Source: a virus | Direction: 5' to 3' (one strand) | Virus record (IMG/VR): IMGVR_UViG_3300028833_000003 | Length of the DNA stretch: 64,000 nt | Shown here: positions 3,001-40,811 of the stretch, one piece after another | Numbering within the stretch: position 1 is the first letter of the stretch | Layout: each line of letters begins with the position of its first letter | Translations under genes and position numbers: made by a program | The notes under the pieces: generated by a model | The model's input: the letters and a program-made list of their open reading frames with translations, nothing else | Told to the model about the DNA's origin: nothing | Databases searched by the model: none

Positions 3001-6000
3001 GCCAGCATGCTTATTAATATAAATACGTCCTGCGCCAGCAGCACCAAAAAATGCTTCACCGCTAGTTAATAATCCATATGTTTGTGCGCCAGCCTTAAAA
3101 CCATAAATACCAGGAGTATCAATACTACCATCGTTAATATCACTAGACCAATCACCCATCAACATACCAGTAAAGGCATTATTTGAATCTTTAGAGCCAA
3201 CGACAATACGTTTAGACAAAGATGTATTGTTATTATTATCAATGGTAATTTCTGTACCGCCCCAAGCATTTACTAATGAAGAACAATAAACTTGCCGTTC
3301 AAATACAATTGCTTGAGTAACCCAAGTACCATCACGCAATTTTACACTTAAATAAGCGTGTGCATCTCGTAATTTGTCTTCCCACTAAGTATTTTCACCA
3401 TCTACTAATAATAAAGAATAGGTAGTGCCCAATTCAGAATCATTAGCTTTAATGCGAATCCAATTATCTACATTTAAAGCATTCTCATAACTGCCAGTAT
3501 CTAAATTTATAAAATAATTAGTACCGATATTATTTACGATCATACCAACGCTTGTATTTAAAGCATCTGCAATACTATCTGCATCGCGATATTTGAAAGT
3601 TAAAGACCATACTGGAGCCATATCTAAAGTGACAGGAATATAACCTGTTTTCAATGATGCTTGATATTCATCAACAATTGCTTCTTTTACTTCACACTCA
3701 TGATCAATCAATGCACGTTGTTCAGTTACATAATTAAATCTTTGATCATTTTCTTCTGGTATTAACTCCGCATTTGCATCAATAACAGCATAACGCTAAC
3801 GCCGCCATGTCCAATTTGCATATTCTAAAGATGGATCAAATTCAGTGGCATATTCTGCGTCAGGCAAACGAATTGCTCTACGCAATTCAATTAAATTAGT
3901 AATAAACCCACGTGCATCATAAATAATTTGCTTACCAATAGATGCCGCCATCTCTTCTATATTAATATAAATATATCTATTATTATGATCTACAACTTCA
4001 AATGCACTTTTATCATAAGCTGGATTTGTACCAGATGAATTAAAAGCGATACGATTTGGACAAGAAATACTATAACTATTCACCTATAAATTATCTAATG
4101 CATCTACTGCTTTCCATACCTAAAATGGTACAGAATAATATAAGCTATAATTTTCTAATCCATCAACTCGCAATGTAATAATAGGCGGTACAATTGGCTA
4201 ATCTACTGTAAAGAAGTCCATTGATAATGGCTAAATATATAAAACACCAGAAGCATCAATATTAATCATATAATAATTGTCTTCTGTATTAGCATTTAAA
4301 CCAGAATTTAAATACCAATAAATCTAACACTTTGCACGTTCTTCATCAGATAGCGGTAATCCATTTTTCTTTCTGATATTAGCAATTAAATCATAATAAT
4401 AAGTACCTAACGAATCTTCTGCAGTGCCTTCTAAAGTAATCATATGATATTTATCTAATTTTAAAATTGGCGCATTAGTTAATTCATTACTATGATCTCT
4501 TACCATAATAGAGATATTATAATTACTACCCATCGTACTGGCATTACCAAAATGGAATTCGCGTTCGGCTATATAATTAACATTCCCATAATTGATATTT
4601 AATGCTAATCTATCTATTGGTCGCGCACTACTTAAAGAATACGAATCTTTAATTCTAAACTCTAATACAAATACTGTAGTTTCAGGCGCAAAATGAAATC
4701 CAAAACGTTCATTCACTTGCTCAGTAGTCATACGATGTAAATAATTAAACATCGTTGGTGAATCAGGATTAACTTCATTCGCAGTAATATCCATATTCCA
4801 ACTGATTGCATACGCTGCCGTTAAGTCATCAGCAATTTGCTAACGTACTGATGCAGTTAATTGTGTAATTAATTCTTCTTTCCCCAATGTAGCATAAGCA
4901 TCATCAAATGAAGTAATATTTAAATAAGCAGCTATAACTTTTTTATCCCAATCGTTTAAATAGCCTTGTGCTACTTCATCTGTTATTGTTGGATCATATG
5001 CTTTTAATTTTTCTAAGTAACTTGATTCTGTTGCAATTGCTTCACGAATAGGCTAATTATATTGTACAATACTATAATTAGCTTCTTCTTCAGAATCATC
5101 AGACCGCATCATCAAAAACGCATAATATGTAACGCTGTCATATGGGATTCCATCTGGATTTTCTATTGCGTGCCCGCGTTCATCAAAAACAAAAAATTCA
5201 GATATACTATCATCAGCTATAAATGATCCACCAAATAAATTTTCTGATGGTACTTTTTCATTTAAACTTTCGTATCGTGGTCTTACTAATTGTACTTTAA
5301 ATTTAGAATTTATGTCAGAAAATTGTTCTACTAAGTAATCAGTAGATTGATTTGTAAAAGTAACTTCATTACTAGTAATAAAAGTATTATCATATGAAGC
5401 AATCGCTTTAAATGTTTGTTTTGATTTTTTAGGATTTAAATCGACTTCTGCCAATGTAAATAATTCTTCTGGTTCATCTAATACATATTTAGCTGGTTCA
5501 TTAGTTTGTTCTTCAACAGTATAAATTTCTGATAAATACTAAAATTCTACTGCATTTAATGGTATAGCAGTATTACGATCTGCAGTGAATGGTAATGTAT
5601 CGCTTTCAATTAATACTAATTCATTACTATCGTTTCGTGTTACTAATTGATAATCAACTAAATTAATCCAATAGCCGTAAGGGTTATTGTTATCCAATTT
5701 ATCAGCAAAGTCTTGTATCTCTACTGCATTACCAAAATTTAACGTCCAACCTGCTATTTCATCATTCCAAGGCTATAAAATAGTCGGCGCATTACCAGTT
5801 CCGCCAGAAGTCAATGGTATATAATAATAAGCACCTACTTTTGGTTGTACAGAATGATCAAAACCATACATATTAGTTAATGTATAAATCATTGAATCAA
5901 ACTTCCAATAAGTAGGTAAATAACCAGGAGCTTCCACCGTAGAATCGTCACATTCAAAAATTGTCTGACCTAATTTAAATTGATATAATGGATGCAATAC

Positions 6001-10342: not shown

Positions 10343-13300
10343 TTATCTATAATTATTAATATATTGTGACGCACGATTATTAAGTTCATCAAACGCCGCA
10401 ATAATTTCGTTTCTATCAGTTGCATTCGGGAACTCAGCGGAAATATGAACATTCTATTCTAGCCCGCCTAGACCAGAGAAAATGCTAGCACCATTGGCTG
10501 AAACTCCACTACTTGACATAGCGGCAGCCAAACCACCAATAAATCCTAACAAATTTTGAACAGCAGATGTATCAATAGAATGTAACAGATCAATCGTATT
10601 TAGCAAATTAGGCGTGTCTGCCGCATTAAGCATAAGCTCTGGTTTATTTGGTGTGCCATCAACCCAAGCAGGTCCAGTATAATCAACCAAACCGCCAGAA
10701 GCATACCCACTTAATTTTGAATTATATCTCATTGCAGCAGCCTTTGCCGCTTCAATTTTTGATTGCCAATCACTTGAAACCTTTTTACTTTTAGTAGATG
10801 ATACTGTTGTACCGTTAGAACTAGCAACCGTACCATCAGTATAACCAACCATATTATTTTGTACTGGTACTAAACGATATTGAATAAAACCAGTAGCATT
10901 AGGTGTTGCAATGTCTCCTTCGGTACCACCAATCTGCCATAATAATTCTAAATTTTTTGTATTTGCTGCTTCAATAGTAGCAAAAATATCTGAAATAACT
11001 TGTTTTTGTCTATACCAAGCATCAGTCACTGCATCAACTTTAGCCGCTTCATCGCCCAATTCCTCATTTAAAAGACTGACTTGCGATGCAGCTAATGATG
11101 TAGTAGAACCAATGATTTCATCAAAATTGGTCATGTCTGCTAACCCAGTACGATAAAGAGATGTATCTAAAGCATCACTGAATTCTTTTAATTTAGGTAA
11201 TAACCAATCAATCTATTCTGCTAAACTCATTGCCATACTATCTTGTAATTCAATAGCAGCTTGAATAGTAGGATTGATACCTTCTGTTGGGTCTTTAAAA
11301 GCACTATAATAAGCATCGCTATATGCATCCATACAAGCTTCATTATTAGTGGTTAAATTAGCATATGCTTCTTTCATTTGATCGACAAAATATTTATCGT
11401 CTTGTTGAGCCATTTCATGTAATTCACGTAATTTTGCTGCTTTTTCTTCTTCATTCAATAAATCATCAAGAGCAATAGCTTTCGCCTATTCCACATACCA
11501 TTTGCGCTTTTCTAACATTTGTTCTTCTAATTCCCGCACTCTGTCTAATGATAATTCATTAATTTCAATTAATACATCATTATATTCCTGCGTTGCTTCA
11601 TCAACTTTTTCTTGGTCTGCAGTATATTGATACATATAATTACCATTTTCATCTCTTGTTAATCGTACAGTATCTTTTGCGTTCTATGCATCACGTAACG
11701 CTGTCTGTTTTTCTAATAGTTCATACTATTTTTGCATCATATCAACATCATATTGAGTTAATTGACCACTTTTAGCTTTTTGATTAATAACATTCTATAG
11801 CTCTTCATATTGATTCTTTAAAGCCTTATCCATAGTATCTGCCATCGCTTGTTCAATTTGTCTATTTAATTTATTAATATTATATAACTAATGAGCTGTA
11901 TTTAAATATCTATCTTGTACTTCAATGTCACGATCATATTTACCTTGTAAGTAATCTAATGTCGTTTCTCCCATCGCCAATGCTCTATCTAATTCAGTGC
12001 CCATTTCTTCAACATCGGCTTCCCAACGTTGTCTAGCTAAATCCGCCATACTTGTTAAATTTTCATAATAAGTATTTTGTGTATCTTTTAAGCGAGCTAA
12101 TAAACTATAATAATCTGCCTATTGCTGTGCGTCTAAATTTTCTAGACCATCAGCTTCAATAATTTTTTGATCAAATAATTCTTTTTGAGCTAAAACAGTT
12201 TCATATACATCTTTATAAATATTTGCCAATGCCTAAGTTTGATTATATTGTTCTGTCAAATTTGCTCTTGTTGTTGTAAATGTTTTATGAACTCCTATTA
12301 AATCACTAATATCTTTAATAGTCTATAAAGCAGTAATATTCTTATCTAATAAATCAGTATTTCTTGATAATTCGTCATCGTATTTAGACCACATATCTTC
12401 AAATAATTCCTATATTTCTTGACCTTTATCAAAGATGTCTGACATATCATCATTTAAAGCTTCCATAATATCCTATGAATGTTCTGCCATAGTTGCACCA
12501 TCAATTTCGCCTGCTTTAAATGCTTGCTATAATTCATTTAATTTAGTCATTTCTTCATTAAGTTTAATAAAACTCGCACCATCTAAATTTACTCCATCAC
12601 TACCAAATAGTGCCTCTGCTATTAAACTTGCTCTTGTGCTAAGATTAGTTAATATATCTTCGGTACGATCAAGTTGCCCTTCTAATGCATTTAATTCTAA
12701 ATCTGCTAATTCAATTTTCCATTCGTGCGCAGTTTCTACGGTTTCAGCAGTTTTTTCAGAAATTTCATGTTGCTATTCAAGAATTTTTTCTTGATATTCT
12801 TCTATTTGAGCTAATGAATCTTCATAATCTTCAATGACTTTCAACATACGTTGATAGGCATCATCAGGTCCTTCCATCCCGCTTTCTGCTTCATCATCTT
12901 TATGTTCATTATACCAATCTATTAATTTTTCCTAAAGAGCTTCCCAATTTTTAATAGTTCCATCTTCATCAAAATCAAGAGTAATACCAAGCTATGCTGC
13001 TAAGCCTTCAACATTTGATCTATCTTTGCTAGCATATGCCGCAGCTTCATTTAATCGTTCTTGATAATTGTCCATTTGTTTATTTAATTTTTCAATTTCT
13101 TCACGCATCAATTTAACTTTAGTTACACCAAATGCCATTTCTTCTTTTTTAGCGACCTAGCCTAATTTGGAATCATATCGTTTAATTGTTTCATCAACTT
13201 CATGGTAGCGTTTAAGATCGGCTTTGGATTTACCTTTCTTCTTCTTTTTGCCTCCACCGCCGCCGCCTCCGCCGCCACCACCAGGTGCAGAAGGTGCTCC

Positions 13301-16300
13301 GGCGCCAGGTCTTGCTCCAGTAGTACCAAAATCTGGTACGGCAAGACTAGTTGTACCTGAACCTTGTAATTGACCTTCAGCAGTAGCAGTCATAGAGCCG
13401 CCACCTGGCATAGTAACTGTCATTGTTGAAGATGCAGGTACATCAATTTCGTTTTCTCCTGTAACTGTCTTTAAACTAGGAGGAGGAGGAGCTTGTACAG
13501 TATATGTGATTGTGCCATCTTGATTTAATACTGCGGTTATAGCATCTGCATTTTGAATTAAGTATTCTACAGGTATCTATACAGCCTAGCCTGTTTGTTC
13601 GCTTAAAGTTGCACTTAACTAATCTGCTAAACCTTGCATATCAGTTCCCATCATTGCCGCAGCGCCTTGGGCATTTGTTGCTACATACTAAAAACCATCA
13701 CCAACTTGCTAAACTGCAAGTCCCATATCATTTAATACTTCATTTGCTTCATCTAAGTTATCAAACTAACTAACAAATTCTTCAGCAGTTTGTTGAGTTT
13801 TTTCTCCCCACTTTGAAGCTAGACCCATTGTATCCATTAACTATCGCATTTGTTTATTGGTTAAGTTTAAATCTTTTTGCAATTGTCGTAATGCTTTGCT
13901 ATCTTCTTTTCCAAGTTTTTCACCAAATTTTAACCCGTTACCAATTTTGTTAAATTCTGCTAACTGTTCTGTACAATCTTCTATAGATTGACCTGTTTCT
14001 TGGAACATCTCATCTAATTGTTTAGTTAAAATTTTTGCTTCTAACTATTCCATTGCTTCAACAGAACCATTAGCCCATTGTGAAATTAAATCTTTATTGT
14101 CTTTGATAAAATCCATGCCAACTTCTGCATCTTTAAAGAAATTATTAACTATATCTACTAAATCTTGATAAGCTGCCATTTGTTCTTTAATAGATTTTGT
14201 TTGATCATCAATAGTAGCTAAAGACCCATTTTCTTCTCTAGCTTTTTGTAATGCATCTAATGCTTCTGTCGCTTTATTATATTCAACAGCTGCTTCAGAC
14301 ATTAATAACTTGTCATCAGCTTCTAAATCTTGCCATTCAAGCATTACTCCTTCATAAGCTGCAATACTTTCAACATAATTTTCCATTTCTTGTGCTTCAA
14401 TACCAAGCTATTGCGCATAATTAGATAATAAATCTGTTAATGCTTGTACATCACCATGTAATGCCGCAGTCACTTTGTCTCCTGCAAATGCTTCATTAGC
14501 TAAATCTGTACCCAATTCTACTTCATCAGTATTAAATAAAATTGGATGTTCTAATAGATATTGATCTACAGCTTCTTGTTGTGCTTGCTGAATTGCAGCA
14601 GCTCTTTTATTCATATATGCAAGTTCACTTTTTGTAACTGCATTACCATTATCATCTAAAAGTAATAAATCAGGTTTATTCGGGTTACTTATTGGTTTAG
14701 GATTAGTTTTATCAAATTCTGCACCTGCTTGTCTTGCTGCATCTGCTTGTATTCTTGCGATTTGGTCCATCTAGGCCTAATTTACTGCAGTATAACCCTT
14801 TTCCTAAAATTGCTTTAATTCCTCTGCGCTATTAGCGTAATCCTAGTTTTTAACAGTAACTTTTCCAGTCTTTTGATCAATTTCAAAACTACTTGCAGTA
14901 CCATCTTGTAACATTTTCATTGCTGCCATAATCTGTGCCGCTGCAGCAGCCATAGCGGCGGCTAACTGCATGGTTGCACTTTCCAATTGCACTAAACCGA
15001 TAGAAGCAACTGTGGCATCTTCACCAACAATTCCCATGTCCTATAAAGTTTTTAGTACCGCTGCCTAATCTGCTTCTGACATACCTGCGAGAGTGCCTTT
15101 TTCAATCATTTGCTATTGAGCAGTCTATAATAATGTCATTTTTTGCTATTGACTATCTATATATTGCTCACCTTCTTGTCGAGCTTTGTCAGCCATATTA
15201 GTTCGTTTGGTTTCTACTTCTGTAAATGCTGCCGCTAAGATTTCAGCCAATTCAGAATCAGAATGTACATACATTGAGTCTTTTATCAAAGATAATACCG
15301 CCTCGAAATCCTCTTGTTTAAGTGTATAACCTTGCGCAGCTTCACTAACATGATAATTACCAGTCTAATCTGCAAAAACAAGACCATGACGTTCTAATCC
15401 TGCCAAAATTGCTATACTATTTGCGTCTCCGGCTTTAGCTTTATCATTATATTCCCCAATTAATTTAGGATTTAATGATTTTCCAATAACATCACGCAAT
15501 TCACCGGCTAAATATTTATCTACATATTTTCTAACATTTTCATTATATTGATCTTTTGTAGTATCTAAATATTCACCATTTTCACTATTTAAAAATCTTT
15601 GTCGCCCTGATTTATTATAAGTATCAAAATCAAATGGTCTATAATCAACTCTTGCATCAGGATTGTTTATATGTTCTTTAATTTCTTGTAATGTTTTACC
15701 TGCTTCTAATAATGTTTGCACATATGCTGCTAATTCATCAGGACTACCGAACATTGATTCTAAGATACTTTTTCCTTCTGCTAATCCTGCTCTCATATCA
15801 GCAATTGCTTGGAATGTTTGCTCCCATAATTCTAGTACTGCTTGTGCAGTAGCTTGTTCCTAAGCATATATCGCCTGTAAACCACTTGCCCATACATCTT
15901 TAATAGTATTCCATGCTTCTTCAACGGCAAATTCAATTTCCGTTCCGCTATGATTTAAAGCTTGTTGTACGGCAGCTATAAATTCTTCGTTATGATTATT
16001 AATTGCATCTGCTAAATCTGTTGCTCCAACTGTAGCAATTGCAGAATTAACTGCAGCGTCTATATAAGATTTTTGAGCATCAGACAATTTATCACTTTGA
16101 GCATATTCTTTATTACGATAATAATCTTTTTCACGTTCAGCAATTGCTTTTTGCATTTCTTCATTGAAGTTCTCATTCATTTTTACCAAAGCATCAGCCC
16201 GAGCTTGTGCAATATCTTTTGGACGTTTAGAATCTTTTTCTGCCTACGCTTTTAATGCTTTTAAAGCTGATTGATATTCATGTTCAAATTCTGCTGTCCA

Positions 16301-19300
16301 TTCTCTTCCAGGCATTTCTTGTGAAACCAATTGTTTTGCTTTTTGTTGCAATTTTTGTTCTTCATCTTTCCATTTAGCTTCTGCATCATCTTGAACTTTT
16401 TGTTCATAAGCCTTCCAAATTTCCTAATCAGTTAATTTATCTTTATTATCTGGATTGGCAATATAATTATCTCTAAAAGCTGCGTAATCATATAATGTAC
16501 TATACTTTTGATGATCCGCATCAGTACCACCTAACAAGCTATCTAAAACATCTGTAATAGATGTATCTTCAGAAATTTTTCCAATAGCATTTTGAATTTC
16601 ATCTAAAATACTTCGTGCAATTTTATCTCCTAAACCATCAACATTTGGCTCCCAACCAGCAATAGACTATGACAAACCAACTTGTAGACCTTGGATTAAG
16701 AATGGAGCCAAAGCCATAGTTAGTTTTGATGGTGATGCAATACCAAGAGCATGAGCAAATGCTGCAATAATTTCATTACCAATTGGCGCAAAATACGCTG
16801 CCCAATCTACATCTGTATTTTGTAATCCAACAATTAAGCCATCCATTAAATGCATAGCTAATGACGCCGTTGCGGAATCAGAAGATTGAGATGCTTCATC
16901 TAATGCTCTAAAATAATTATTTAAAACATCAGGTGCCAAATCTTTAAAATCATCTGGAGACATGGCTAAAATTTTATTATACATAAGTTGAGCCTTATAT
17001 TTTTGTTCATTTGACCAAGTATTATGGCTACCTTCAGCATTAAATTCGAACATAGCACTTTGTATATCTTGTATACTCTATAAATTATTATGTCGCTATC
17101 TAAAGTTTGTCACATGCTATTTTTCATTATTAGCAATAAATGGTATATCAATTCCACCTAAATAAGAATACATTTTATCAAGATCTTCTGCGCCCTTTTG
17201 CTATAAATTGCTTTTATCCATCAAAGCTTTAACTTTAACAAAATATTCTTGTCCTTGTAACTGTTGTTGAATAGTGTTATTTCCAAGACTCGCATCAGCT
17301 TTAACATGATATTCATTTGGTTTATCTTCTGCTCCATCAATTGCTCCCTATAATTCTGCAGCTAAAGTTACTTCTGTACCATTTGCTAATCTTACTTTAA
17401 TTTCTTTGCCTTTTCCATCTGCTCCTTGTAATATTTGAGAAATTTGCGATTCAATAATACCAACATCTGTTTGAATTTTTAGTTTTCGTGGTTGACCATT
17501 TTCATCTGTTTCCATTTCCCATGCGCTTATTTTAGATGCTAAATTAAATTCTTCGCCTTTATCATCAACGCAATTAATTTTAATATTATGACCAGTTGCA
17601 TCAGTTTCATAACTTTTAATCGTTGCCGCAAAATCTTCGTCATCTTTTCGAATTAAAATAGTTTTAGTGCCTGGAAGCATTAAAGCTGCGACCGTTACCG
17701 TAAAACCTAATGTATTACCTGCATTAATTGCAATTTTCTTTTCCTCTGGAACACTATCTAATAAAGTAGTATAAGTTACTTCAAAAGTGCCATTTTCGCC
17801 ATCAAACATAATAGTTTTATGGTCTGTAGTAATTGCTGTATTATATTTTGCAGTATAAGTACCAAATTCACCTTGGAAAGTAATAGTTTTATCTTCTCCT
17901 GCAATTGCTGTATCATATGTTGCAGTATAGGTACCAAATTCACCTTGGAAAGTAATAGTTTTATTTTCTGTAGCGGTTGCTTCTTTAACTGCAAAAGTAT
18001 AAGTGCCACCATCACCTAAAAACGTAATCGTTTTATTCTCATTCATTATAGCTTCTTTTACTGTATCTGTATAAGTTCCAAATTCGCCCTAAAATATAAT
18101 TGTTTTATTGTCATCTAAAGTTGCAGATGTATAAGCCGCCTAATAAGTTCCATCTTTAGCATAAAAAACAATATTCTTTTCTCCATCAATCTGTACAGCT
18201 TCTAATGAAGAAGTATATTCACTACCTGTTTCACCAACAAATGTAATTATTTTTGAACCAGGATGACTTTCAATAGCAGCAATTGTATCACTGTATTCTT
18301 TATCATCAACAGAAAAAGTTACTTGTCCATCAGGATGTAAATTAAAATTCTCAACTGCCTAAACTACTTCTTTACCATCAACGGTATAATAAACTTGACC
18401 ATCTTGATAAAGCCAAGTCTAAATTTCATCTTCATTTTCCATCTCGGCTTCAACTTCAATTACACTATGGTCAACTGGAGTTGTATCTAATTCTGTTACT
18501 AATCCAACATATTCTTGTTGCCGTTTTTCTAAAGTACTTAATTGCATTAATGCTGCTTCTGTTGCGGCTACCATGCCAGCCTTAATTTGCTCTTTATCTC
18601 CATCAGCATTTTGAATATCTTCAATAATTTCTTTAACTCTTTCAGCTGCAACACCAGCTCTAATTAAAGATTGTTCTAATTCACCAATTGAAGAAAAAGA
18701 TAAATTATCTAATGAAGTTAAATTTGATTGAATGAACTAAATCGCACTTTTAGCCGCGTTAATTTTTTCATCGTCCTAACTAGTTTGACTATCAACTCGA
18801 GACTATATTTGTTCCATACGCTAGTCATTTAATGCACGCTCTTGAGCTTCGATTTTTCTCTACTAAATTTGAACCTGAGTATCATCATATCCTTTTTCAT
18901 CGCGCATGTTCTATAATTCTTCTAGCTTTTGTTTCATTTGTTCCAATCTATATGTTTCTCGTTCTAGATCAGACATTCCTAGCCATTCCTCAAATGAGGG
19001 AGTATCAGCCTTATTTAAGCCCAATAATAATTGATTCATTGCTAATTCAGTATCTTTCCATTTTGTCGGGTCTAATTCTGCACCAGATAACCATTCTAAC
19101 TATTGCGATTTACCAGACGCAGTTTCAATAAATTTAGTTGCAGTTTGTAACGCCGTAGTAATATTAGTATATTCTGCTTCTTCATCACTTAAACTTGTTA
19201 ATAATCCTCTAAAATCACTATTGTTATTTACTGTACCTTTATAAGATATACCCCAATCATTCATATATGTACGTAAAATATCACTTGCAGAACCTGCAGT

Positions 19301-22300
19301 AGCATATTTGTCACCAAACATAGCAAGCATAGTATTACGTGTATCTTCGTTGTTTAATAATTTTCCATTTTCATCTATGTTTTCTGATAAAAAACGCTAA
19401 AAAGTACGCTAATGCTCCCATTGCTATTTAGCCTAATCAACATCTTCTACACCCATTCGTTCTTGCATAAAAGCATTCTATGAATCTGTAATAATAGTAT
19501 TTAAATCTACCATTCCATCTTCATATTGTTGCCACCAATTATCATAACCTGTGCTTATTTGCTCCATTAAAGTCGCCATTTGTGCGGCTTTTTCAGAAGA
19601 AGACATTTTATTCCATTCTTGAGTATTAAAAATTTCTCCTAATCCTAATAAATCACTTACTATTGGTAGCTATGCCGCAAAACTATCTATATCAAATTCA
19701 CCAGAATATCTATTACCCCATTGAGCCAATAAGCCTGTTGCAGTTTGTGCTTTTGCTTGTTGCTATAATAATTGAGGAACTCGTTTGTCCATTAAATCAC
19801 CATTATTATCTAAAAATGGTGCTATATTAGCCATATAAGACCAATCTTTATCAGTAAAACCCCACTGCTCTAATTTTTTCTACGCTTCTTCTTTTGTCAT
19901 TTTTTTATTACGAGTTGTCATTGCAGTTACAGCAGATTCTTTATTAGCAACCGTTGCATCTGCCGCAGCTATATCACTTTCTGATACACCGACTAATCCT
20001 CTGGCATAAGTAGTTACTAATTGACTAGCTTGTTTTTTAGCTGCTCGAGTAATAGCATCATTTTTATTACTATCTATGCCCCAGTCTGCTAATAAACCTT
20101 CAACTAAACTCTCCTATACATCAGAACTCCATCCTTCAACATTTTGTTGTTTTAGCCAATCCTAGCCTTTTAATTCTCTCATACTCTTAATAGCATTAAG
20201 ATATGGAGAAATCATTTCAGTGATCATGTAATCAATATCTTCAAATGATTGATCATGTACTAAAGCTTCTAACTATGATTTCATTCCAGGGTCTTCAATA
20301 GTTTTTGCTGCTTCTTTAATTGCTTGTAGCTAATTATAATAATGTAACAATGAATCTAAATCAGATTCAATAACTAAGTCATCGGCAGTTCGTGCCATCC
20401 CTGTTCCACCCGCGCGCGCACTACCGCCTAAGAATGATTGAATCAAATTATTTTCTTGATCGCCTGTTGCATTACCACTAAGCCAATAATCATATTTTCG
20501 ACTACCAGCATAATCAATATTAATACCATATTGATTAGCTAACATATCTCTTATATTTGCATTCTATAAACTTTTTAATAAACCAGATTGTTTCATATTA
20601 GTATTAAATGAACTTAATATGTCATTATAAACAACTCCGGTTTTATTCCCTTCATTATTATCTCTATATTTGTCTCCCATATTTTCTTTTGCTATTTTAG
20701 TAACCTAATTTTCTAAACCATGTTCTGCGCGTCTAACATCAGATTCTGCAGTTTCAATTTGTTGTTCACGTGCAGCCTCAATAGATTCTTGAATAGCTGC
20801 AGTTAATCCTTGATAATTACCAGTAAGTGCCATAACTGCAGCACCCTAAATGCCTAAACTAGATGCGATATCAGCTAAAGCACTACTATATTCTTGAACA
20901 GATAATGCACCTTCTGCAAACTATTTGTTTAATGAGTCAAAAGCATTACTATTAGTCATTAATTCTTGATTTGATTGTTGATGTTCTTCTAAAATTTTAT
21001 TTGTAGTTTCTGCCATTTTAACCATTTCTTGTTCACGTTTTTCTTGCTAATCTTTCATATACGTAAATACACCAGCAATTGCCATACCAGCCGCTTGAAT
21101 GCCTGCCATCAATGGTCCTTGTGTTGCAAATGTATTAAGTAATGAACCACCTGCACTAACAATAGAAGTTACACCTGCTAATGTATCACCACTTTCAAAT
21201 GACTTCATAATACCTTGCATAGAAGTAAAACCTTGAACTGCAGCCATGGCTCCTTCTGCAACTGTTGCCAAACCCTTAGACAATTTTTGAGCTGCAGCTT
21301 CACGAGCATTCAATGCTTGCTCTTCTTCATCTTCCATATCAAAGCCTGCAGTAATCTCTTCTTGGCCTACCTAACGACCATATTCCTAAGCTCTATGAGC
21401 AGAATCTTCACCAACAATGCTACGCATTTCCTGATAAGCTTCATCTAAGTCATCATCAATTTGATCACGTAAATGCTCTGCAATAACTCTTCCACGATCA
21501 GCTTTAGTAGCTTGATTTTGTTCATTAAAACCAGCACTTTCAAGCCAATCATTCATTTCATTTTCGTCTTGCGGTAAAAAATCACGTACTGCTTGAGCCA
21601 TTGGATTATTCTCATCCATCATAACAGACTCAAAACGCTCTGCAGCCGCTGTACTATCTGTGTCCTCATTAAAAATTTGATCTATCTATTGATTTACTGC
21701 ACCACGTAAAGCATTTCCTCTAGCTTCTTCTTGTACTCTATTACCTAATCCACGTATCGCTGTATTTTGTACATTCTTATCATCTGATTTAAAATCTGCT
21801 ACCATGTCATCAAGATCACTACCACTATAACCCTGATCAGCATAATAATTTAAAGCATTAATATAAGCATCATCACGTAATTTATCAGCAGTACCTGTAC
21901 CTTCTAATTCAACTAAAGAACCAATTGATAATTCTCTACGAGCTTCATCTGTAATATTGGCTAAATTAGTTTCATGACCTGCCATGGTTTGCTAACGCTA
22001 ATTTAAATAATCAATATGCTATTGTAAACGCGCAGCTTCTTGTCCACTCATATGCCCTTGTCGTAATAATAATTCTTGTTTAGCTATCGCACTTTCACTT
22101 CTTGCGTCTGCACTTAATAAACGCATTGTATTTGCAGTATTTGCACTTGTATCTGGTGTTAATTCACTTTCTCGTCTATCTAAAGCGCTATTATATTCCA
22201 TATCTGCCGATCTACGTAAAGTTGTTAGATTATCAAATAAATTTCGCTATTGAGTGCCTTGTGCAAATTTTTGAGCACCATACTAAGAAATTGCTTGCAT

Positions 22301-24001
22301 CCTTCCGCCATAATTATTTGAATTATTTTGCATATAAGCATTAAATTTTCTATAAGTAGGAATACCACCAATTGGATGCCCTTCTGAGCCTTTTGCTGCT
22401 TTCATGTTGCCCCATGCAGTCCGCAACGTACCACCTTTGCCAAAGAAATTTCCAAATGCCATGCTAATACCTGTTAATTTATCTAACATCTATGGTTTAA
22501 ATGCAGTCATCATCATCTAAGAAATTTTTGCTAATATACCAGGGATACCTCCAAGACCATTAACTAAACCTCTAACTGCAGATAACGCTGTTGCCAATGC
22601 ATTATTAAATCCAACAAGGAATTTATCATTAATTAAATCACCGAAAATAGCTTCTTTACTTGCTTGTACTCTTTGTTTAGATGCTTTAACAGAATCTTCA
22701 TAAATTTTCTGCATTTTTTCTAAGCTGCCAGCTGAATTTTGAGCATTTTGCAAATCTTTTTGATACGTATCCCAGTTTTCAAATAATGCCATTAATTGCG
22801 TATATTGACGTTTACCAGCAACAACCTGCGCGATAGCAGTTTTTTGCGCACTGCCCATGGTCTACCATTTATTACCAAGATCAGTAATAACATCGCCCAT
22901 ATCACGCATATTACCAGTAGCATCTAAAACCTATACACCAATAGAATTTAATGAGCTTGAAACTTTACCTAAATTAACACCGTCTTCTAATGTTTCACCT
23001 AATTTTAAGTCACCCATACGTGCTAAAATAGTTTTAAAAGATGTACCAATTGATTCAGCACTTTCACGAGTAACAGAAGATACAGTTGCAACAATAGAAG
23101 ACATTTGTTCCATACCGACACCAACAGTACTAGCAGTCGCGGCAACTTTCTATAAAGCTGTTGCAATTTCTTCCATGCTAGTAGCAGTAGTAGAACCTAA
23201 TTTTGCCATTACATCTACATAACCTTCAAGCTAATCACCGCCTGCTTTATAAGAATTCCAAACGGCGGTTAGCATTTCTGACATTTCCGCAGCATTAGCT
23301 TTGAATGCAGTATTTGCAGCCTTTAAAGTAATTTGTGCTTTCTTTTGTACATCTCTATCATTATCACCCTATTGATAATAAATTAATGCTGCATCAGCAT
23401 ATGCTTTTGTTGATGTACTTAAACTTTTTGCCATTACATTTGCTTCTTTTGCAAAATTGCTCATATCAGAAATAGATTTGCCAGTAACAACACGAATATT
23501 ATTTAATGAAGTATTTAAATTTTCAATATAGCTAACTGCTCCACTCATAGCAGACTATAAGCCATGAACCATTTGACTAGCTGCTTGCCATTTCACAGTA
23601 TTCATTAAAGTTGTGCCAAACTATGCAATAAGACCAGTCGCTTTTTGCGCGGGAATAGTTGCCTAAGTTAGAACAGAAGACAACTATGAAATTGCCTATT
23701 GTCCAGTTGTACCGGCGCGCTAGAAACTGGCAATTAACGTTTGAACATTTGTATTAGCACTCGCCAAGCTATTACTTAATGCACTAAAATTAATTTGCCC
23801 AGTATTAACATTAACTGCCTATTGTAATGCCTACTATAATTTTGCTGCTTGCTACGCGGCATCTGCCATATTTGTATCAATTTTTAAATTTAATCTACTG
23901 TTTTGCTGCAATCTTTGTAATGAAGAACTTAATTGTTCAACCTACCGCTATGCAGCACTGGCATCAGCCTAAATATTAATTTTATACTATACACCAGCCA
24001 C
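10343..24001 (-). CDS. tail tape measure protein, 4552 codons with TAG as sense
   Basis: 19 ORF-track fragments (10454..11134 to 22931..23113) share one frame and each ends in rc-TAG. Hand check of 11461-13156 and 22859-24001 found only TAG in frame. GTG 23999-24001 follows GAAAGGAG. The N-terminal third reads like a TP901-type TMP core. Stop is TAA 10343-10345. Confidence 0.8.
17747..18253 (-). repeat. seven tandem 72-nt (24-25 codon) coding repeats inside the tape measure
   Basis: The unit K-T-I-T-F-Q-G-E-F-G-T-Y-T... repeats seven times. DNA copies such as accaaattcaccttggaaagtaatagtttt recur at 17861 and 17933. Confidence 0.85.
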
Positions 24002-25976: not shown

Positions 25977-27059
25977 TTATTCACCAAAACGCTTTGGAGG
26001 TTCCTTACCAGAATCTTCATAAATGTCGCCTGGGAATTTAGTATCACCCTCAACTGCGCCACGAGTTGAACCATCATAAAGTGCAGTATCTTCAACAATC
26101 TGAAGAGCAGCAATTACTTTCTTGGTCTTATCAAACTTAGTATAGTCTGGGAAAGCATCCATTGTGAAAGTAAAGGTAGAAGGATCACCAGTAGGTGCCA
26201 TTGTGAAGGTAAAGTTAGACTGAACCTTGCAGTTAGGAATGATAAATTCAGCAGGATAGTCTTCACCAGTTGCTTCATCACGGAACAAAGTAGAAGCTTC
26301 AAGATAATAAGAACCACCGAACTTACCAGCTTCAATATCAATCTGCTTTACATACTGAGTGCTCTTTACATAATAGTCAATATAAAGAACAGAACCTGGA
26401 TCATCGCCCATGCCATTAACGTAGTCATATACTTCCTGTGGATTCTTAGCATCCTTATAAGCATCTACGTTTGCTTGGAACTCAGTGCCAATAGGAGCAT
26501 GAGCATCCATGATCTTACCAGCGACCAATAATTCATTATGAGCAGCATTATAAGCAGCAGCCCAATGAGCAAAGATTTCTTCAACGTTCATTTCCTTAGC
26601 AATATCATCACGTTGAATTTCCATAGGAATACGATTGGTATTAATAGAACCATCAGCATTCTTCAACATAATATACATGCTACCACCCTTGGCTGGCTCA
26701 TGAGCAAGAGTAATCTTACCTGCTTTAATCTGAACCTGCTCAGTAGTATGTACATAAATAGGATGATCTTCATCAGCATCCATGAAACCAGCACCAGAAA
26801 GAATTGAGAAGCTTTCTGGACTAATCAAAGCATCTTCCATTGTAAATGTTACAGTACGGTCGCCTTCCCAAGCTACCAAGCGAGGATTACCTTTACCGCC
26901 CTGAGCATAAACAGTTGTGCTCTGGCCTTCCAAAGAAGAAGTCTTCAATGTTTCAAAATATAACACAGGCATATCCTTGTCAAGATACAACTTACCGAAG
27001 AAACCTGCTGCCTTACGACGAAGTACAACATCGCAAATTTCGCGTACGCCAAATCTCAT
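25977..27059 (-). CDS. major tail (tube-like) protein, 360 aa
   Basis: ATG 27057-27059 lies 8 nt after AAGGAGG; the ORF-track start at 27098 would overlap the upstream gene. No TAG. Strong terminator follows. Sits between the neck genes and the chaperone/TMP. The N-terminus resembles tube proteins by recollection only. Confidence 0.55.
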   Translation of the reverse strand: MRFGVREICDVVLRRKAAGFFGKLYLDKDMPVLYFETLKTSSLEGQSTTVYAQGGKGNPRLVAWEGDRTVTFTMEDALISPESFSILSGAGFMDADEDHPIYVHTTEQVQIKAGKITLAHEPAKGGSMYIMLKNADGSINTNRIPMEIQRDDIAKEMNVEEIFAHWAAAYNAAHNELLVAGKIMDAHAPIGTEFQANVDAYKDAKNPQEVYDYVNGMGDDPGSVLYIDYYVKSTQYVKQIDIEAGKFGGSYYLEASTLFRDEATGEDYPAEFIIPNCKVQSNFTFTMAPTGDPSTFTFTMDAFPDYTKFDKTKKVIAALQIVEDTALYDGSTRGAVEGDTKFPGDIYEDSGKEPPKRFGE

Positions 27060-27076: not shown

Positions 27077-27835
27077 TTAATGTAAACTTTTCATCCAATC
27101 GTCTGGTTTACTGTCGGGTTTTCCGCCAGCCAAACGTGATCTTATATCTAAATCCCACCCGACATATAAGCCGTATCTCTCAATCAAATCATAGAGCTGA
27201 TAGACCGTAAGATTAAGGCAATCATCCAGACTCATGGATTCCAGAGCAATGGTGAGAATAGAAACATATCTAGATAAAACACCATCATTACCACCCGAGC
27301 CTCTACGCCGAGCAGCTTCACTACGACCCTTCATTAATTTCGCCGCAATTGCAGCAGCTTTATTACCTTTTGGATTATAATTTGAGTTCTAACCACCAGT
27401 CGCATTATTTAATCCACACACTTCTGTTAGAATTGCTTGCACAGTATCAAAATTATTTTCATCAAGAGTAAAAGAATGTTTTGTCGTAGCGTTATTAAAA
27501 AAAACTCCCATAGGTAAAAACTATGCAGTATATCCTGGGAAAAACAACATAAACAGTTGTTCGATGGTATTTTTCCGCTTCCCCGAATCCTAAATATTCG
27601 GGTTAGCTACTAATGTCATAAATATCTAAAAATTATTAAGGGCGGCTAAACTAGAAGCGCCCTATCCTGTCTAAGATGCTAAAAGCACTTTTCGATTAAA
27701 ACACACTAACTATAAGGCTAAAAAATATTCTTCTTCACCAATTAATGCAATTTCCGCGATTTTAGGCTAGTGGATTGTAGTCTATAACTCAACTACTGGG
27801 ATATTAGTCCCAGCCATTAAAGCTAATGAATTCAT
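27077..27835 (-). CDS. neck/tail-module protein (252 aa)
   Basis: ATG 27833-27835 overlaps the upstream TGA (ATGA). At least eight in-frame TAGs (e.g. 27389, 27521, 27590, 27626, 27662, 27671, 27710, 27767, 27782). Stop is TAA 27077-27079. Confidence 0.55.
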
Positions 27836-30212: not shown

Positions 30213-30812
30213 TTACTCCCCCTTTGCCTCTTCTTTCTGCACTACTTTATACTGAGGAGTAGTGCGGCGACCACTAGTTTTAGTTTCGGCCTATACTCTA
30301 CGGGTAGGTGCAGCCTTTACTTCCATACCACTATCAGTAGTATTTGCTTCTTCAGCCTGCGCAGCTTCAACTTCTGCCTTATGCTGCAAAGCAAGCGTTA
30401 TATCAAAACCAGTCTTTGCTTTAAGAGCTTCGCGCTTACGCGCATCATTGCAAGGCAATTCATAAGAATATTTCTTGATTAAATCTATTACACCATCAGG
30501 CGCAAAATCAAGGCAATCAAGGAATGCTTCAACGCTACCATTTTGAATTAAATCAATAACGCCTTTTTCATCCAAATAATATTCAGGTTCAATCCGAATA
30601 GGCATTTCCTTCACTACTTCTGTATCTTCAATAAATAGACTATCACGAAGCATTACAGTACCACCTGGAACAAAACTTAAAGCATCCAACTCTTCACGAG
30701 TAAGATTTTTTACTTCGCCAGGCTACCATTCGCGGCGAATGCCCATATCTGGAATCGTATAAATAAGCATTCTACTACTGCGATTACGCACTTTAATTTT
30801 ATTGTCTGCCAT
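30213..30812 (-). CDS. structural-module protein (199 aa)
   Basis: ATG 30810-30812 follows AAGGAG. In-frame TAGs at 30723 and 30291. Stop is TAA 30213-30215. Confidence 0.65.
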
Positions 30813-30841
30813 ATTTTTTTACTCCTTTTTCTCTTAAATTA

Positions 30842-30878: not shown

Positions 30879-31934
30879 TTAATCGCCCGTTTCATTTGCA
30901 GAACGTGTAACATTCAATTGACCTTTAAGAGCATCGTCGATATATACGCAGATGTCTGGAGTCATAACAACACCAACGCCTACTTTCTTATAGACCTGAA
31001 TTTCACGGCTGCGATCCTTATTGACATATTCATCAACAATAGTGCTACCTTCCATAACAACCTTGGCAGGCTTTACAGCACCTGGAAGAATATAGCAATA
31101 ACCTGGGTCAATAACCTTTGTCTGATGAGTTGCATCAGTGAAGCCCTGTGGAAGAATAGTAATAGGATGATTCTTATAAGAAGCAAAACGACCATTATTC
31201 CAAATAGTATCCTTCATATTGTCAGAATACATAGCAGCATTAGCAGGACGAATCTTAGAAGCAAATTCTTCAGTGCAATAAATGGTAGGAGTACCATAAG
31301 CTGCAGCGATAGAAATTAAACGATCAAATGCTGCTTCATCCCAACCAGTAACTTCAGCAGTATTAAGAGCTGGAAGCTGATTCAAACCAGTCTTCAAAGC
31401 CTGACCGATTTCCCAATAAATGAGTTCGTCAAGACCTTCCATAACAATACGAGTTACCTCAGCAAAATCAGCACGACCATCAAGGAACTCTTCCAAACCA
31501 ATCTGAGCGGCACCGCCGATAGCACTGGTCTGTACTTCGATAGGCGTATCTTTACCAAGCTTAAATACTTCGTAAATACCAGCCAAACCGACCTTGGTGA
31601 TGAACTGCTTTGCACGCTGACGATCATGCCAACGCATAAAGATAGCCTTGTCACCCTGAGCCATGGTCTTTACTTCGGCAAACTTGCCATATTCCTGCTC
31701 AACTTTACGAGGAAGAACATCATCCATGGTCTGTTCGATTAATTCAAAGATAGTATTCTTATTTTCACGATAAAGAGCAAAAGTGCCTGCATACTCATTG
31801 AGTTCTTTACGAAGGGTCTCATTGAGTGCATCATAGGTGAGATTCTCACCATTAAATGAATATGCAACAGGAGCAGAGCGATCGGCCTTAGCTGTTGCCT
31901 TCATCAATTGAAGAAGTTCTTTCTTATCCAACAT
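30879..31934 (-). CDS. major capsid protein (HK97-fold type), 351 aa
   Basis: ATG 31932-31934 lies 7 nt after AAAGGAGAG. Uninterrupted ORF with no TAG. Follows the portal, protease/scaffold and 249-aa genes. Size and sequence style fit capsid proteins (recollection, not searched). Confidence 0.7.
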   Translation of the reverse strand: MLDKKELLQLMKATAKADRSAPVAYSFNGENLTYDALNETLRKELNEYAGTFALYRENKNTIFELIEQTMDDVLPRKVEQEYGKFAEVKTMAQGDKAIFMRWHDRQRAKQFITKVGLAGIYEVFKLGKDTPIEVQTSAIGGAAQIGLEEFLDGRADFAEVTRIVMEGLDELIYWEIGQALKTGLNQLPALNTAEVTGWDEAAFDRLISIAAAYGTPTIYCTEEFASKIRPANAAMYSDNMKDTIWNNGRFASYKNHPITILPQGFTDATHQTKVIDPGYCYILPGAVKPAKVVMEGSTIVDEYVNKDRSREIQVYKKVGVGVVMTPDICVYIDDALKGQLNVTRSANETGD

Positions 31935-31954
31935 TGTCAATCTCTCCTTTCCTA

Positions 31955-32704
31955 TTACTGAAGTCTCATAATTTTAACAGCTGGTTGCATATCGCCAAGA
32001 TTATAAACCTTAACTACCTGCCATACCATACCAGCAGGAAGAGCAGGAGCATTTTCACCACTAGGAGCGGTAACCTTAACAAGATAACCATCTTCGCCTG
32101 GGGCCAAAAGATCACCACGAGCTAAAGAACCTGGATCTGCTTTAATGCAGTTAGTAGTAAAAATATCACCCTCATGAGTCTTAAAGAGACGAGGTACCAT
32201 AATACCCTGGGTATCAGTAAAGAGCTGTGGCTGATTTAATACTTCAACTTCATACTTGTTACCAATAGCAAAATGATTACGACCAAAATCTTCACCAGGA
32301 TAGGTTTCGGTATGTCCATCTGGATAAATCTCACTATTAGCACCAATAGTCTTCATCAAAGGATTAAGATCAACATTATTAGCACCGGTTACACCAACTG
32401 GGCTATAAACAGAGCCGGTATAGTCACGACGGATCATTGCGAAGTCCTGATCGGTTTCGCCCTTGGCATAAACCTTTACTTCGTTATAAACTAACATCCA
32501 CTCGCCCTTGCCGGTAAAATTGACTACATTATTAGCATAGTCATACTTTGCAAACTGACCATTCTCAAGAATCTTAATATTCTTAGCTGCTGGCAACTGT
32601 GCATAAATCTCGCCAGTGCGCTGTGCAGACAAATGGTTAGGTTCAACCTGACCGAAGCCATAAGTTACATAAGTGGCTACCGGTGAAAGTCTTTTAAAAG
32701 CCAT
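31955..32704 (-). CDS. head decoration/auxiliary capsid protein by position (249 aa)
   Basis: ATG follows AAAGGAGGA. No TAG. Lies between the scaffold-like and capsid genes. Confidence 0.45.
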   Translation of the reverse strand: MAFKRLSPVATYVTYGFGQVEPNHLSAQRTGEIYAQLPAAKNIKILENGQFAKYDYANNVVNFTGKGEWMLVYNEVKVYAKGETDQDFAMIRRDYTGSVYSPVGVTGANNVDLNPLMKTIGANSEIYPDGHTETYPGEDFGRNHFAIGNKYEVEVLNQPQLFTDTQGIMVPRLFKTHEGDIFTTNCIKADPGSLARGDLLAPGEDGYLVKVTAPSGENAPALPAGMVWQVVKVYNLGDMQPAVKIMRLQ

Positions 32705-32725
32705 TGTAGCTTCCTCCTTTATTTA

Positions 32726-34063
32726 TTACATATTTTTGGCGGTTTCGCGCACGGCCTTAATCCAGGCAGGAGCGTTATCTGACTCGCCCGTTTCATCTAA
32801 ATTGAAAGTGAAGTCTTTTTCAGGCTTCTTTTCAGTATCAAGGTCGAAACTTACCTTGTTACGAACACAAAGAATACATAATTTAGCTTCAATATCGTCC
32901 AAAGAATATTCATCAATCTTTGAAACTACATCAGCCTTATCGGCATCTGTAAGCATATAGAAACTATCAATCATGTCTTGCTTAGCCTTGCGATCGGCAT
33001 CAGCCTTGAACTTGCGCAATGGCTCAAGTTCAGCAGTAAGAGAATTTACCTGCTCTTGAAGAGAAGCGAACTGTGATTGAAGATCCTTGTAAAGTTCAGA
33101 CTCAGTAATCTCTTCATCAGAAAGAGAATGCTTGGTCTTTTTCTTCTTTTTATCTTCGTCTTCATCATCTTCTGGTTCAGACTTGTCATCCTCACCATCG
33201 CCTTTATCAGATGCGGGCTTGTCTTCTTCCTTCTTCTTTTCATCAGAAGGATCTTCGCCTTTATCTTCTGGCTTGTCCTCGTTTTCTTCCTCGTCCTTGG
33301 GCTTCTTCTTAAATTCAGTATCATCGTCCAAGGGGAGGTTCTCTTCAACAGGAGGATTTAATTTTTCATTCTCATTGTCCATGTGAGCATTTCCTCCTTT
33401 TTCCAGCATTGCTTTAATTTCCCCGACCATAGCATACATTGTCTGCTTAAAGTCATCATCTAGGGAGAATGTTGCAGCAATTCCGGCGCCTTCAAAGCAA
33501 GGTTCGCAATCCTCACCGAGAATGCAAAGTTTGGAAATTACTGCCTCATTGATTATAAAAAATTCAGGCCATCCATTATCGTCAAATGACCAATCTCCGT
33601 TAGTAAGACTTTCATCTAACTCCATTGATTGATTATTCCCATTTGTTAAAATACGCTTAGATTCTGGATATGCCCCAGTCCAAATCCACCCTTCGGTCAT
33701 TAGATACTCATGATCTACGCCATCATCAGTGAATGTTTGAAACCATACTTTTGCGTTCATATCTACAAATCCATAAGGACGTGTAGTATCAACAATTCTT
33801 ATGCCATCGCCACGAATTTCTAAGTTCTTATTATGCTGCTCAAAATCATCTTTGTTTTCATTATAAAAACCAACGATTGGGCAGCCCGGCAAAGACTTAG
33901 CCATTTCAGTCGCAACAGCCTTGGTGATAACACTACCATTGCGGTTAGGTTCATCACCCACATAACATACTTTAATTTCACAATGTGAAATTAAAGGATT
34001 AACGGGAGTAAAATTCAATAATGAAATTGTATTTTCCCGCGGTATGCTTATATGACGAGCCAT
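32726..34063 (-). CDS. prohead protease-like domain fused to an acidic linker and scaffold-like coiled coil (445 aa)
   Basis: ATG follows AAGGAGGGAG. The N-terminal ~210 aa resemble XkdF-type phage protease domains (recollection). There is a D/E/K low-complexity tract (33080-33330) and a helical C-terminus. No TAG. Confidence 0.55.
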   Translation of the reverse strand: MARHISIPRENTISLLNFTPVNPLISHCEIKVCYVGDEPNRNGSVITKAVATEMAKSLPGCPIVGFYNENKDDFEQHNKNLEIRGDGIRIVDTTRPYGFVDMNAKVWFQTFTDDGVDHEYLMTEGWIWTGAYPESKRILTNGNNQSMELDESLTNGDWSFDDNGWPEFFIINEAVISKLCILGEDCEPCFEGAGIAATFSLDDDFKQTMYAMVGEIKAMLEKGGNAHMDNENEKLNPPVEENLPLDDDTEFKKKPKDEEENEDKPEDKGEDPSDEKKKEEDKPASDKGDGEDDKSEPEDDEDEDKKKKKTKHSLSDEEITESELYKDLQSQFASLQEQVNSLTAELEPLRKFKADADRKAKQDMIDSFYMLTDADKADVVSKIDEYSLDDIEAKLCILCVRNKVSFDLDTEKKPEKDFTFNLDETGESDNAPAWIKAVRETAKNM

Positions 34064-40427: not shown

Positions 40428-40534
40428 GGAATGCTTTTTCTATTGTTTTCCCAAAAATATGGGGTGGTAAGAGGTTCCAGGCAAAAAAAATTTTTCACTT
40501 TAAAACCAATTAATTCCTGAAACATACGCCCCCC

Positions 40535-40610
40535 ATTTCATTCTCACGCCGGCGCGCCAGCGGCCATGGCGCGCCGAGTTTGCCTGTATTTTTACCCCAC
40601 AAAAAATTAA
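40535..40610. repeat. GC-rich intergenic element, copy E1
   Basis: GGCGCGCC...GGCGCGCC hairpin, then ...TTTGCC...ACCCCACAAAAAATT. Same layout as E2-E6. Confidence 0.5.
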
Positions 40611-40781: not shown

Positions 40782-40811
40782 AAGTACATCAAGAGAAAGG
40801 AGCTAACCGCT

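Follow-up and report, generated by a model that had tools for sequence, protein, structure and literature searches.

The viral record IMGVR_UViG_3300028833_000003 (IMG/VR) was analysed over a stretch of 64,000 nucleotides, referred to below as the window, with regard to the meaning of the codon TAG in its late genes and above all in a tape-measure gene that contains a tandem repeat array. The window corresponds to positions 15494–79493, reverse strand, of the 168,974-bp contig ENA ERZ27257202 k141_292341, for which public gene calls already treat TAG as sense, and by its gene content represents 64 kb from the genome of a large gut-type phage, an SPbeta-like siphovirus of 169 kb. A late structural and packaging module occupies 40–40042 (minus strand); its 19 genes, comprising a sigma-like gene, a YonG-like gene, the large terminase TerL (YonF type), portal, YonD/YonB head genes, YomW/V/U tail genes, the tape measure and two giant distal tail proteins, are readable solely with TAG as sense. 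Pfam families found in the neighbouring genes were YonG_N, YonD_N, YonB, YomW, YomV_2nd, YomU_Tube and YomO. Further TAG-bearing genes lie at 56339–56866 and 58193–58819 (both minus); the TAG-bearing strand of the window holds in total 21 genes with 231 in-frame TAG, terminated by TAA (18 genes) or TGA (3 genes). The DNA of the late genes is 33–35% G+C, and no in-frame TAA or TGA was found over their 13.4 thousand codons. Open reading frames (ORFs) called with the standard code are fragmented; reading TAG as sense gives minus-strand ORFs of 4560, 2327 and 1095 codons without TAA or TGA.

An early block of small genes at 40146–55572 (plus strand) is richer in G+C, contains no in-frame TAG, and none of its genes ends in TAG. 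The 36 plus-strand ORFs at 40146–55572 and 59566–63955 gave: stops, TAA 22, TGA 14, TAG 0; in-frame TAG, 0. Since TAG is absent from them, the early genes are readable in the standard code of the host; TAG as terminator was found in 0 of the 57 genes of the window.

The tape-measure gene (10343–23869, minus) has 4508 codons from the first ATG (23869), 99 in-frame TAG, no TAA or TGA in frame, and TAA as its stop; the full frame that is open with TAG as sense runs from 24022 to 10343 (4560 codons, 103 TAG, 0 TAA/TGA), and on translation of the minus strand the frame of the codon 18091–18089, which lies in the repeat array, is interrupted by TAG alone. Its identity, already proposed in an original prediction made from the letters of the window, is supported by a PhageMin_Tail domain (PF10145; 22820–23446, minus; residues 193–401; E = 6e-25), by the gene order (YomU tube, 413-aa protein, YomO-like protein, tape measure, then tail proteins of 1089 and 2317 aa) and by tblastn matches to the 'putative tape measure protein' of Geobacillus virus E3 and, in Enterococcus phage H1, to a 'tail protein' of 2673 aa; the public annotation of the contig likewise has a 4508-aa product with PF10145 here. 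In relatives the N-terminal ca. 600 aa and residues ca. 3500–4200 are conserved and the middle is not: residues ca. 600–3500 (roughly 2900) have almost no match in the tape-measure loci of 74 relatives. The protein of 4508 aa is ca. 1.7 times as long as those of cultured relatives (2609–2673 aa; Alicyclobacillus phage KKP_3916 and H1), and several TAG-free relatives have tape-measure ORFs of more than 2600 codons. A low-complexity run G11-K5 is encoded at 13235–13282.

The residue inserted at TAG was examined in homologues. Related loci (161) were taken from IMG/VR: 80 were anchored on TerL, 80 on the tube gene and one on the N-terminus of the tape measure. In scans of that database 217 TerL stretches and 197 tube stretches were confirmed as related. 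The late proteins of the window, with X at each TAG, were aligned by tblastn, and four GenBank phages were compared as well. As the codons of the subjects were read from DNA, database translations could not make the comparison circular. Of the related loci, 152 were classified by code state: 110 had at least 5 in-frame TAG and 42 had none in more than 1500 aligned codons, recoded and standard-code loci being found among close relatives within one lineage. The alignments continue uninterrupted through the TAG codons.

Log-likelihoods (lnL) of the standard amino acids at the TAG columns of the window favoured glutamine (Gln) in each of three comparison sets: 80 TerL-anchored relatives, 51 columns, Gln −122.7, runner-up Glu −160.0; the 42 relatives devoid of in-frame TAG, 85 columns, Gln −215.5, runner-up Lys −254.9; the 110 recoded relatives, 96 columns, Gln −251.2, runner-up Glu −297.3; the lead over the runner-up was thus 37–46 lnL. 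Other values in the 51-column set were Lys −163.6, Thr −167.7, Leu −233.5 and Tyr −243.2. The mean profile of homologues at the 51 TAG columns (Gln 0.34, Lys 0.13, Glu 0.11) is close to that of true Gln columns of the same alignments (Gln 0.46, Glu 0.13, Lys 0.10). In the reverse direction, the residue of the window at TAG sites of the relatives was most often Gln (442 cells, 58 columns). The outcome that would have spoken against Gln, namely enrichment of some other residue at the TAG columns of homologue alignments, was not observed; Gln was favoured there.

Single columns gave the same result. A TerL TAG at 36655–36657 (minus) stands in an invariant Gln column (EHF..Q), in which 80 relatives have 32 TAG, 26 CAA, 22 CAG and no other codon; CAA is found there in Enterococcus H1, Geobacillus E3, Alicyclobacillus KKP_3916 and Phass-1. 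At a portal TAG (34811–34813, minus) 69 relatives have 40 CAA, 25 CAG and 4 TAG, with Gln in H1, KKP_3916 and Phass-1; at a TAG of the sigma-like gene (39590–39592, minus) the relatives have 54 CAA, 13 TAG and 5 CAG, with CAA in Enterococcus H1. Two TAG columns of the YomV-like gene (27767–27769 and 27710–27712, minus) hold CAA, CAG or TAG only. The TAG at 23369–23371 (minus), within the conserved Y-Q-Q-G motif of the PF10145 domain of the tape measure, is replaced by CAA in Enterococcus phage H1 and in Phass-1. Where TAG stands in an invariant column of TerL, portal, the tape measure or the sigma-like gene, cultured standard-code phages thus have CAA or CAG. TAG is shown to be translated, evolutionarily interchangeable with CAA and CAG, and never a stop in the window; in the late genes it is almost certainly a sense codon for Gln.

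If TAG were an ordinary stop, the late genes would be pseudogenes, split genes or products of faulty assembly. The standard code does give short ORFs only, and TerL (36052–37788) matches two half-length PHROG families as separate halves, phrog_15503 (residues 9–235) and phrog_24618 (residues 355–570). However, 231 in-frame TAG stand against not a single TAA or TGA in the 13.4 thousand late codons, conservation runs across every TAG, the same genes occur in independent assemblies, and the pattern is repeated in 110 independent related contigs; the split families are more simply taken as standard-code miscalls of recoded phages, and look like pieces of recoded terminases, predicted in the standard code, that were taken up into the reference collection. 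An ordinary stop is therefore scarcely credible.

The repeat array lies within the tape-measure gene at 17741–18253 (minus) and consists of seven tandem units with the skeleton K-x-I-x-F-x-G-x-x-G-T-Y-T. Translation in register gives units arranged head-to-tail, one of 25 codons, five of 24 codons and a last one of ca. 26; units 1–7 start on the minus strand at 18253, 18178, 18106, 18034, 17962, 17890 and 17818, i.e., at residues 1924, 1949, 1973, 1997, 2021, 2045 and 2069 of the ORF. The units read (x = TAG): 1, KIITFVGETGSEYTSSLEAVQIDGE; 2, KNIVFYAKDGTYxAAYTSATLDDN; 3, KTIIFxGEFGTYTDTVKEAIMNEN; 4, KTITFLGDGGTYTFAVKEATATEN; 5, KTITFQGEFGTYTATYDTAIAGED; 6, KTITFQGEFGTYTAKYNTAITTDH; 7, KTIMFDGENGTFEVTYTTLLDSVPEE. 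A profile built from units 3–6 was scanned over the 4559-residue ORF and scored unit 2 at 45.5, unit 7 at 39.7 and unit 1 at 30.5 (remainder of the ORF: maximum 13.2, mean −18.6, standard deviation 9.0); since the outer units score far above the best value elsewhere, all seven are regarded as real. Tandem Repeats Finder found the period-72 core. The seven tandem repeats of 24–25 codons that had been described for the tape measure were in this way recovered by register and by profile scan, and their core by Tandem Repeats Finder.

Two in-frame TAG fall in the array, one in column 6 of unit 3 (18089–18091, minus) and one in column 13 of unit 2 (18140–18142, minus). The former was the basis of the original prediction, which set it against CAA (Gln) in column 6 of unit 5 (17945–17947, minus) and of unit 6 (17873–17875, minus) and concluded that TAG encodes Gln; the latter was absent from it. 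The positions of these three codons are exact on the minus strand. Exactly three units read K-T-I-(T/I)-F-X-G-E-F-G-T-Y-T, as was stated, but these are units 3, 5 and 6 and not adjacent ones: unit 4, with TTA (Leu; 18017–18019, minus) in column 6, stands between the TAG unit and both CAA units. Nor are the units near-identical in their DNA, unit 3 sharing just 48/72 nucleotides with unit 4, 46/72 with unit 6 and 43/72 with unit 5. The statement that TAG and CAA are one transition apart is incorrect, two positions being different (two transitions); the codon of column 6 that comes nearest to TAG is TAT (Tyr), found in unit 2.

Codons of column 6 in units 1–7 are GTT, TAT, TAG, TTA, CAA, CAA and GAT, i.e., a variable column with V, Y, L, Q, Q and D apart from the TAG unit; those of column 13 are ACT, TAG, ACA, ACT, ACT, ACT and GAA (Thr in five units, Glu in one). 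Units 5 and 6 are identical at 63/72 nucleotides and are recent duplicates, so their CAA codons make one evolutionary observation. With BLOSUM62 conditional probabilities, the preference of column 6 for Gln was 1.5 lnL and vanished once units 5 and 6 were counted as one; column 13 favoured Thr by 6.7 lnL, and jointly Thr was ahead of Gln by 7.5 lnL. The register thus withstands alignment of the seven units, and the comparison built upon it does not: a Leu unit is interposed and the second TAG stands opposite Thr. With a variable column, duplicated Gln units and a second TAG that would give Thr, the repeats alone do not furnish a database-free proof; on their codons they are compatible with Gln and are not a demonstration of it. 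The argument from repeats fails while its conclusion stands, because the support for Gln comes from the homologue columns. Thr was rejected as the meaning of TAG, being contradicted by 85–96 homologue columns.

The repeat segment has no relatives in the IMG/VR search and none in the tape-measure loci of relatives, and among 5.8 billion proteins its sole match was a standard-code fragment of the same phage; its two TAG sites are consequently not checkable against outside homologues. A single-sequence AlphaFold model of the TAG-free part 17351–18088 was all-beta with ca. 2 strands per unit at low confidence (predicted local distance difference test, pLDDT, 56), a value too low for a fold search. 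The array is a lineage-specific insertion of seven units, probably all-beta, in an unusually long tape measure, and its two TAG are two of the gene's 99 glutamine-coding ambers and nothing more. The tryptic peptides that span them are TIIF-X-GEFGTYTDTVK (unit 3) and DGTY-X-AAYTSATLDDNK (unit 2).

TAG could be sense and encode another residue, i.e., one of those known from classical amber suppressors (Tyr, Leu, Lys, Glu, Ser or Trp), Thr or pyrrolysine. Such a reading may draw on the repeats, where column 6 also holds Leu and Tyr, the latter as TAT, one base from TAG, and where five units have Thr in column 13, and on Lys and Glu being the next commonest residues at the TAG columns of homologues. 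However, over 51–96 columns Gln is 37–46 lnL ahead; in the 51-column set Thr is 45 lnL behind, and Leu, Tyr and Trp are more than 100 behind. Columns of up to 80 relatives are invariant for CAA, CAG and TAG, with Gln in cultured standard-code phages, and the spread of Lys, Glu and Asn around Gln is the ordinary pattern of true Gln columns; as to pyrrolysine, the window showed no pyl genes. Another residue is accordingly rated very improbable.

Within the late module four genes are free of TAG. Three are adjacent head genes at 30879–34063 (minus; YonB-like, a 249-aa protein and YonD_N-like), in which CAG exceeds CAA; the fourth is the tail-tube gene YomU_Tube (25977–27059, minus), the TAG fraction of which is 0.006 in 82 recoded relatives. 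The YonB-like and 249-aa genes of recoded relatives have TAG as 0.007–0.017 of their Gln-type codons. Together the four genes have 0 TAG among 45 Gln codons (CAG:CAA 35:10; AAG:AAA 80:27); in the other late genes TAG makes up 35% of Gln-type codons (CAA:CAG 391:47). Among the recoded relatives, TAG is likewise shunned (0.6–2% vs 16–50%) by the genes of the tube, the YonB-like protein and the 249-aa protein and by that at 30213–30818, but not by the YonD_N-like gene (16%). From these codon counts the most abundant virion proteins appear to have been kept amber-free across the lineage. Codon usage falls into three classes by G+C content at third codon positions: 0.21 in late genes with TAG, 0.32 in late genes without it and 0.48 in early genes; loss of CAG tracks gain of TAG, as expected if the ambers came from CAG via C-to-T changes under AT pressure.

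The first gene of the late block (38972–40042, minus) matches the sigma-factor family phrog_5767, has a C-terminal zinc-ribbon/HNH-like tail and carries 6 TAG; should it drive late transcription, the code switch must precede it. The gene at 58193–58819 (minus; 208 codons) has a weak LexA-type winged-helix match and 7 TAG, amid TAG-free early genes on the opposite strand; because of these 7 TAG the putative DNA-binding protein would be makeable only after the code switch. The gene at 56339–56866 (minus) has 175 codons and 2 TAG. ORFs overlap on both strands at 59404–60321 and 62111–63955 (e.g., 62111–63778 minus vs 62144–63955 plus); those on the plus strand agree with public gene calls, and the minus-strand partners look like mirror-frame artefacts. 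Pfam searches with nine early or right-end proteins were uninformative.

Taken together, the explanation of the locus as a whole, in which UAG of the late genes is read as Gln (genetic code 15) and the early genes are TAG-free in an SPbeta-like siphovirus, appears very probable on the codon evidence. Several points weigh against it. The alignment statistics give the best standard amino acid, and a Gln-like or Lys-like non-standard residue is not distinguishable by them. At the two TAG sites of the array the paralogous columns either carry no information or favour Thr. The window yielded no recognisable gene for a release factor or a glutaminyl-tRNA synthetase; ARAGORN and Rfam found no transfer RNA (tRNA) at all in the window, hence no CUA anticodon, and no tRNA(CUA) was found in the 9.96 kb past its right end.

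The scan for tRNAs covered contig positions 5539–79493, i.e., 74 of 169 kb (44%). A tRNA region was found at 18267–21803 of locus L174, ca. 6.4–9.9 kb beyond window position 64000; it contains 12 tRNAs with gene-free spacers (Thr-GGT, Lys-CTT, Thr-CGT, Val-TAC, Gln-CTG, Ile-TAT, Glu-CTC, Met-CAT, Glu-TTC, Pro-TGG, Trp-CCA and Asp-GTC, the last cut at the locus end) and extends past the end of the DNA read. Its tRNA-Gln(CUG) and tRNA-Lys(CUU) read codons favoured by the TAG-free genes. Neither relaxed ARAGORN with introns allowed nor a search of stem-loops for a CUA anticodon arm gave a positive result; ARAGORN over the 161 related loci gave Asn and Arg tRNAs only. Two metagenome scans with window-derived patterns gave no matches; IMG/VR queries with 445-aa and 603-aa early proteins and with the 3' segment of tRNA-Gln(CUG) also gave none, and a query with the 135-aa protein P0002 reached only a 1.2-kb contig. 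A search with the anticodon arm of the Phass-1 suppressor matched only two Phass-like contigs; tRNA(CUA) is present in Phass-1 and in these two IMG/VR contigs within long dispersed tRNA regions.

At the ends of spacers in this region stand tRNA-like T-arm hairpins not called by ARAGORN or Rfam, among them those at ca. 20095–20125 and ca. 20455–20480 of L174. One element of 154 nucleotides (19326–19480 of locus L172, corresponding to ca. 18539–18693 of L174) has a 7-bp acceptor stem, a D arm, a long variable-type arm, a T arm and an ACCA end, with a branched insert of ca. 75 nucleotides in place of the anticodon arm (fold z = −2.0).

By analogy with recoded phages, TAG would be decoded by a phage-encoded suppressor tRNA with CUA anticodon, charged by the glutaminyl-tRNA synthetase of the host; produced from that part of the genome which uses the standard code, ahead of late translation, it would bring about the code switch. 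The suppressor is probably encoded in the tRNA region that starts ca. 6.4 kb past the right-hand edge of the window. Because Phass-1 and Phass-like contigs hold tRNA(CUA) in comparable regions, a dedicated phage tRNA(CUA) in the remaining part of the genome is rated likely. The demands on decoding would be severe: with efficiency p per codon the yield of full-length tape measure is p^99, i.e., ca. 0.6% for 0.95 and ca. 37% for 0.99, and per-codon decoding would need to be ca. 0.97–0.99 or better. As 99 ambers demand such efficiency, release factor 1 would presumably be effectively out-competed late in infection.

Gln could alternatively be inserted without a canonical phage tRNA(CUA), by a near-cognate tRNA-Gln(CUG), an unusual tRNA-like RNA or a suppressor of the host. 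This would agree with the lack of a CUA anticodon in 74 kb, including a region of 12 tRNAs that has tRNA-Gln(CUG), and with the spacers holding uncalled tRNA-like T-arm/acceptor ends, among them the 154-nucleotide element devoid of a normal anticodon arm. The scan, however, covered 44% of the genome, the tRNA-Asp is cut at the locus end and the region continues; the code-15 phage Phass-1 and Phass-like contigs hold tRNA(CUA) in equivalent regions, and near-cognate readthrough would be far too inefficient for 99 ambers per ORF. This route is considered improbable, and its narrower form, in which a canonical CUA suppressor is lacking altogether and the 231 or more ambers are read as Gln via the phage's own tRNA-Gln(CUG) or a tRNA-like RNA, is given a slightly lower probability still; if true, the genetic code would here be switched by a novel route. 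Decoding by a dedicated phage tRNA(CUA) is preferred.

For annotation, the 40-kb late module fragments under the standard code, loci of the lineage need translation table 15, and reference families seem to hold such fragments already, as with TerL in two half-length PHROGs. For biology, an SPbeta-like 169-kb siphovirus lineage, which probably infects Bacillota, joins the amber-recoded phages; it is populous and uncultured (more than 200 related IMG/VR stretches), its loci read are partly recoded and partly not, and the 4508-codon gene with 99 ambers sets a high floor for decoding efficiency. Standard-code and recoded close relatives standing side by side make the transition from CAG/CAA to TAG traceable. 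As to method, paralogous repeats by themselves are too weak, and too easily cherry-picked, for the assignment of a codon.

TerL of the window (YonF type) is 47% identical to that of Enterococcus phage H1 and of Geobacillus E3, 42–43% to that of Phass-1 and ca. 32% to those of SPbeta-like Bacillus phages and the Lactococcus 949 group; its tblastn matches are annotated 'protein YonF' or terminase. Standard-code SPbeta-like and allied siphoviruses of Bacillota (Enterococcus H1, Geobacillus E3, Alicyclobacillus KKP_3916, Lactococcus 949 group) share with it a YonF-type terminase, 46–47% identical, the Yon/Yom order of head and tail genes and very long tape measures; unlike the window they have no in-frame TAG, and Gln codons stand at its conserved TAG columns. 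With phage tape-measure proteins of the PF10145 type the present one shares the N-terminal domain, the place between tube/chaperone-like and distal tail genes and a very long, mostly helical-looking sequence; it differs in its 4508 aa, in the insertion of seven putative beta-hairpin units and in ca. 2900 residues that lack a homologue in the loci examined.

Phass-1 (OQ749652; proposed genus Phassvirus; NCBI 'Caudoviricetes code 15 clade') is the nearest described recoded phage and was re-annotated with table 15 on the same TerL reasoning (PMC10607447). Shared with it are the TerL type, homologous portal, head, tail and tape-measure genes, TAG in TerL, portal and tape-measure genes, and a long tRNA region with interspersed small ORFs; in contrast, its genome is of 136 kb vs 169 kb here, it has three annotated tRNA-Sup-CTA vs none in the 74 kb read here, and the large middle of the tape measure is unique to the present phage. 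Members of Phassvirus share 82–86% nucleotide identity; membership of that genus was rejected, blastn of the portal–TerL region giving no Phass-1 match and TerL identity being 42–43%.

Recoded phages have been described as using the alternative code in late and lysis genes only, and alignments of TerL assigned TAG to Gln in many clades (bioRxiv 10.1101/2021.08.26.457843); amber-to-Gln decoding was confirmed by proteomics in crAss-like phages (PMC9523058). The code-15 phages described to date (crAss-like, Lak and those of Borges et al.; bioRxiv 10.1101/2021.08.26.457843; PMC7886860; PMC9523058) have in common with the present one TAG concentrated in late genes and aligned with Gln, early genes compatible with the standard code, and recoded and standard-code members mixed in one lineage. 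From the crAss-like and Lak phages it differs in being an SPbeta-like siphovirus with relatives on Bacillota rather than a member of Crassvirales or Lak, in major capsid and tube genes that are kept TAG-free lineage-wide, and in that the 74 kb read contain no suppressor tRNA. TAG-rich late genes without TAA or TGA, TAG columns occupied by Gln in homologues and early genes compatible with the standard code, all marks of the code-15 phages, were found; by its sequence the phage is a functionally ordinary code-15 phage, and an SPbeta-like lineage is added to the known amber-recoded phages.

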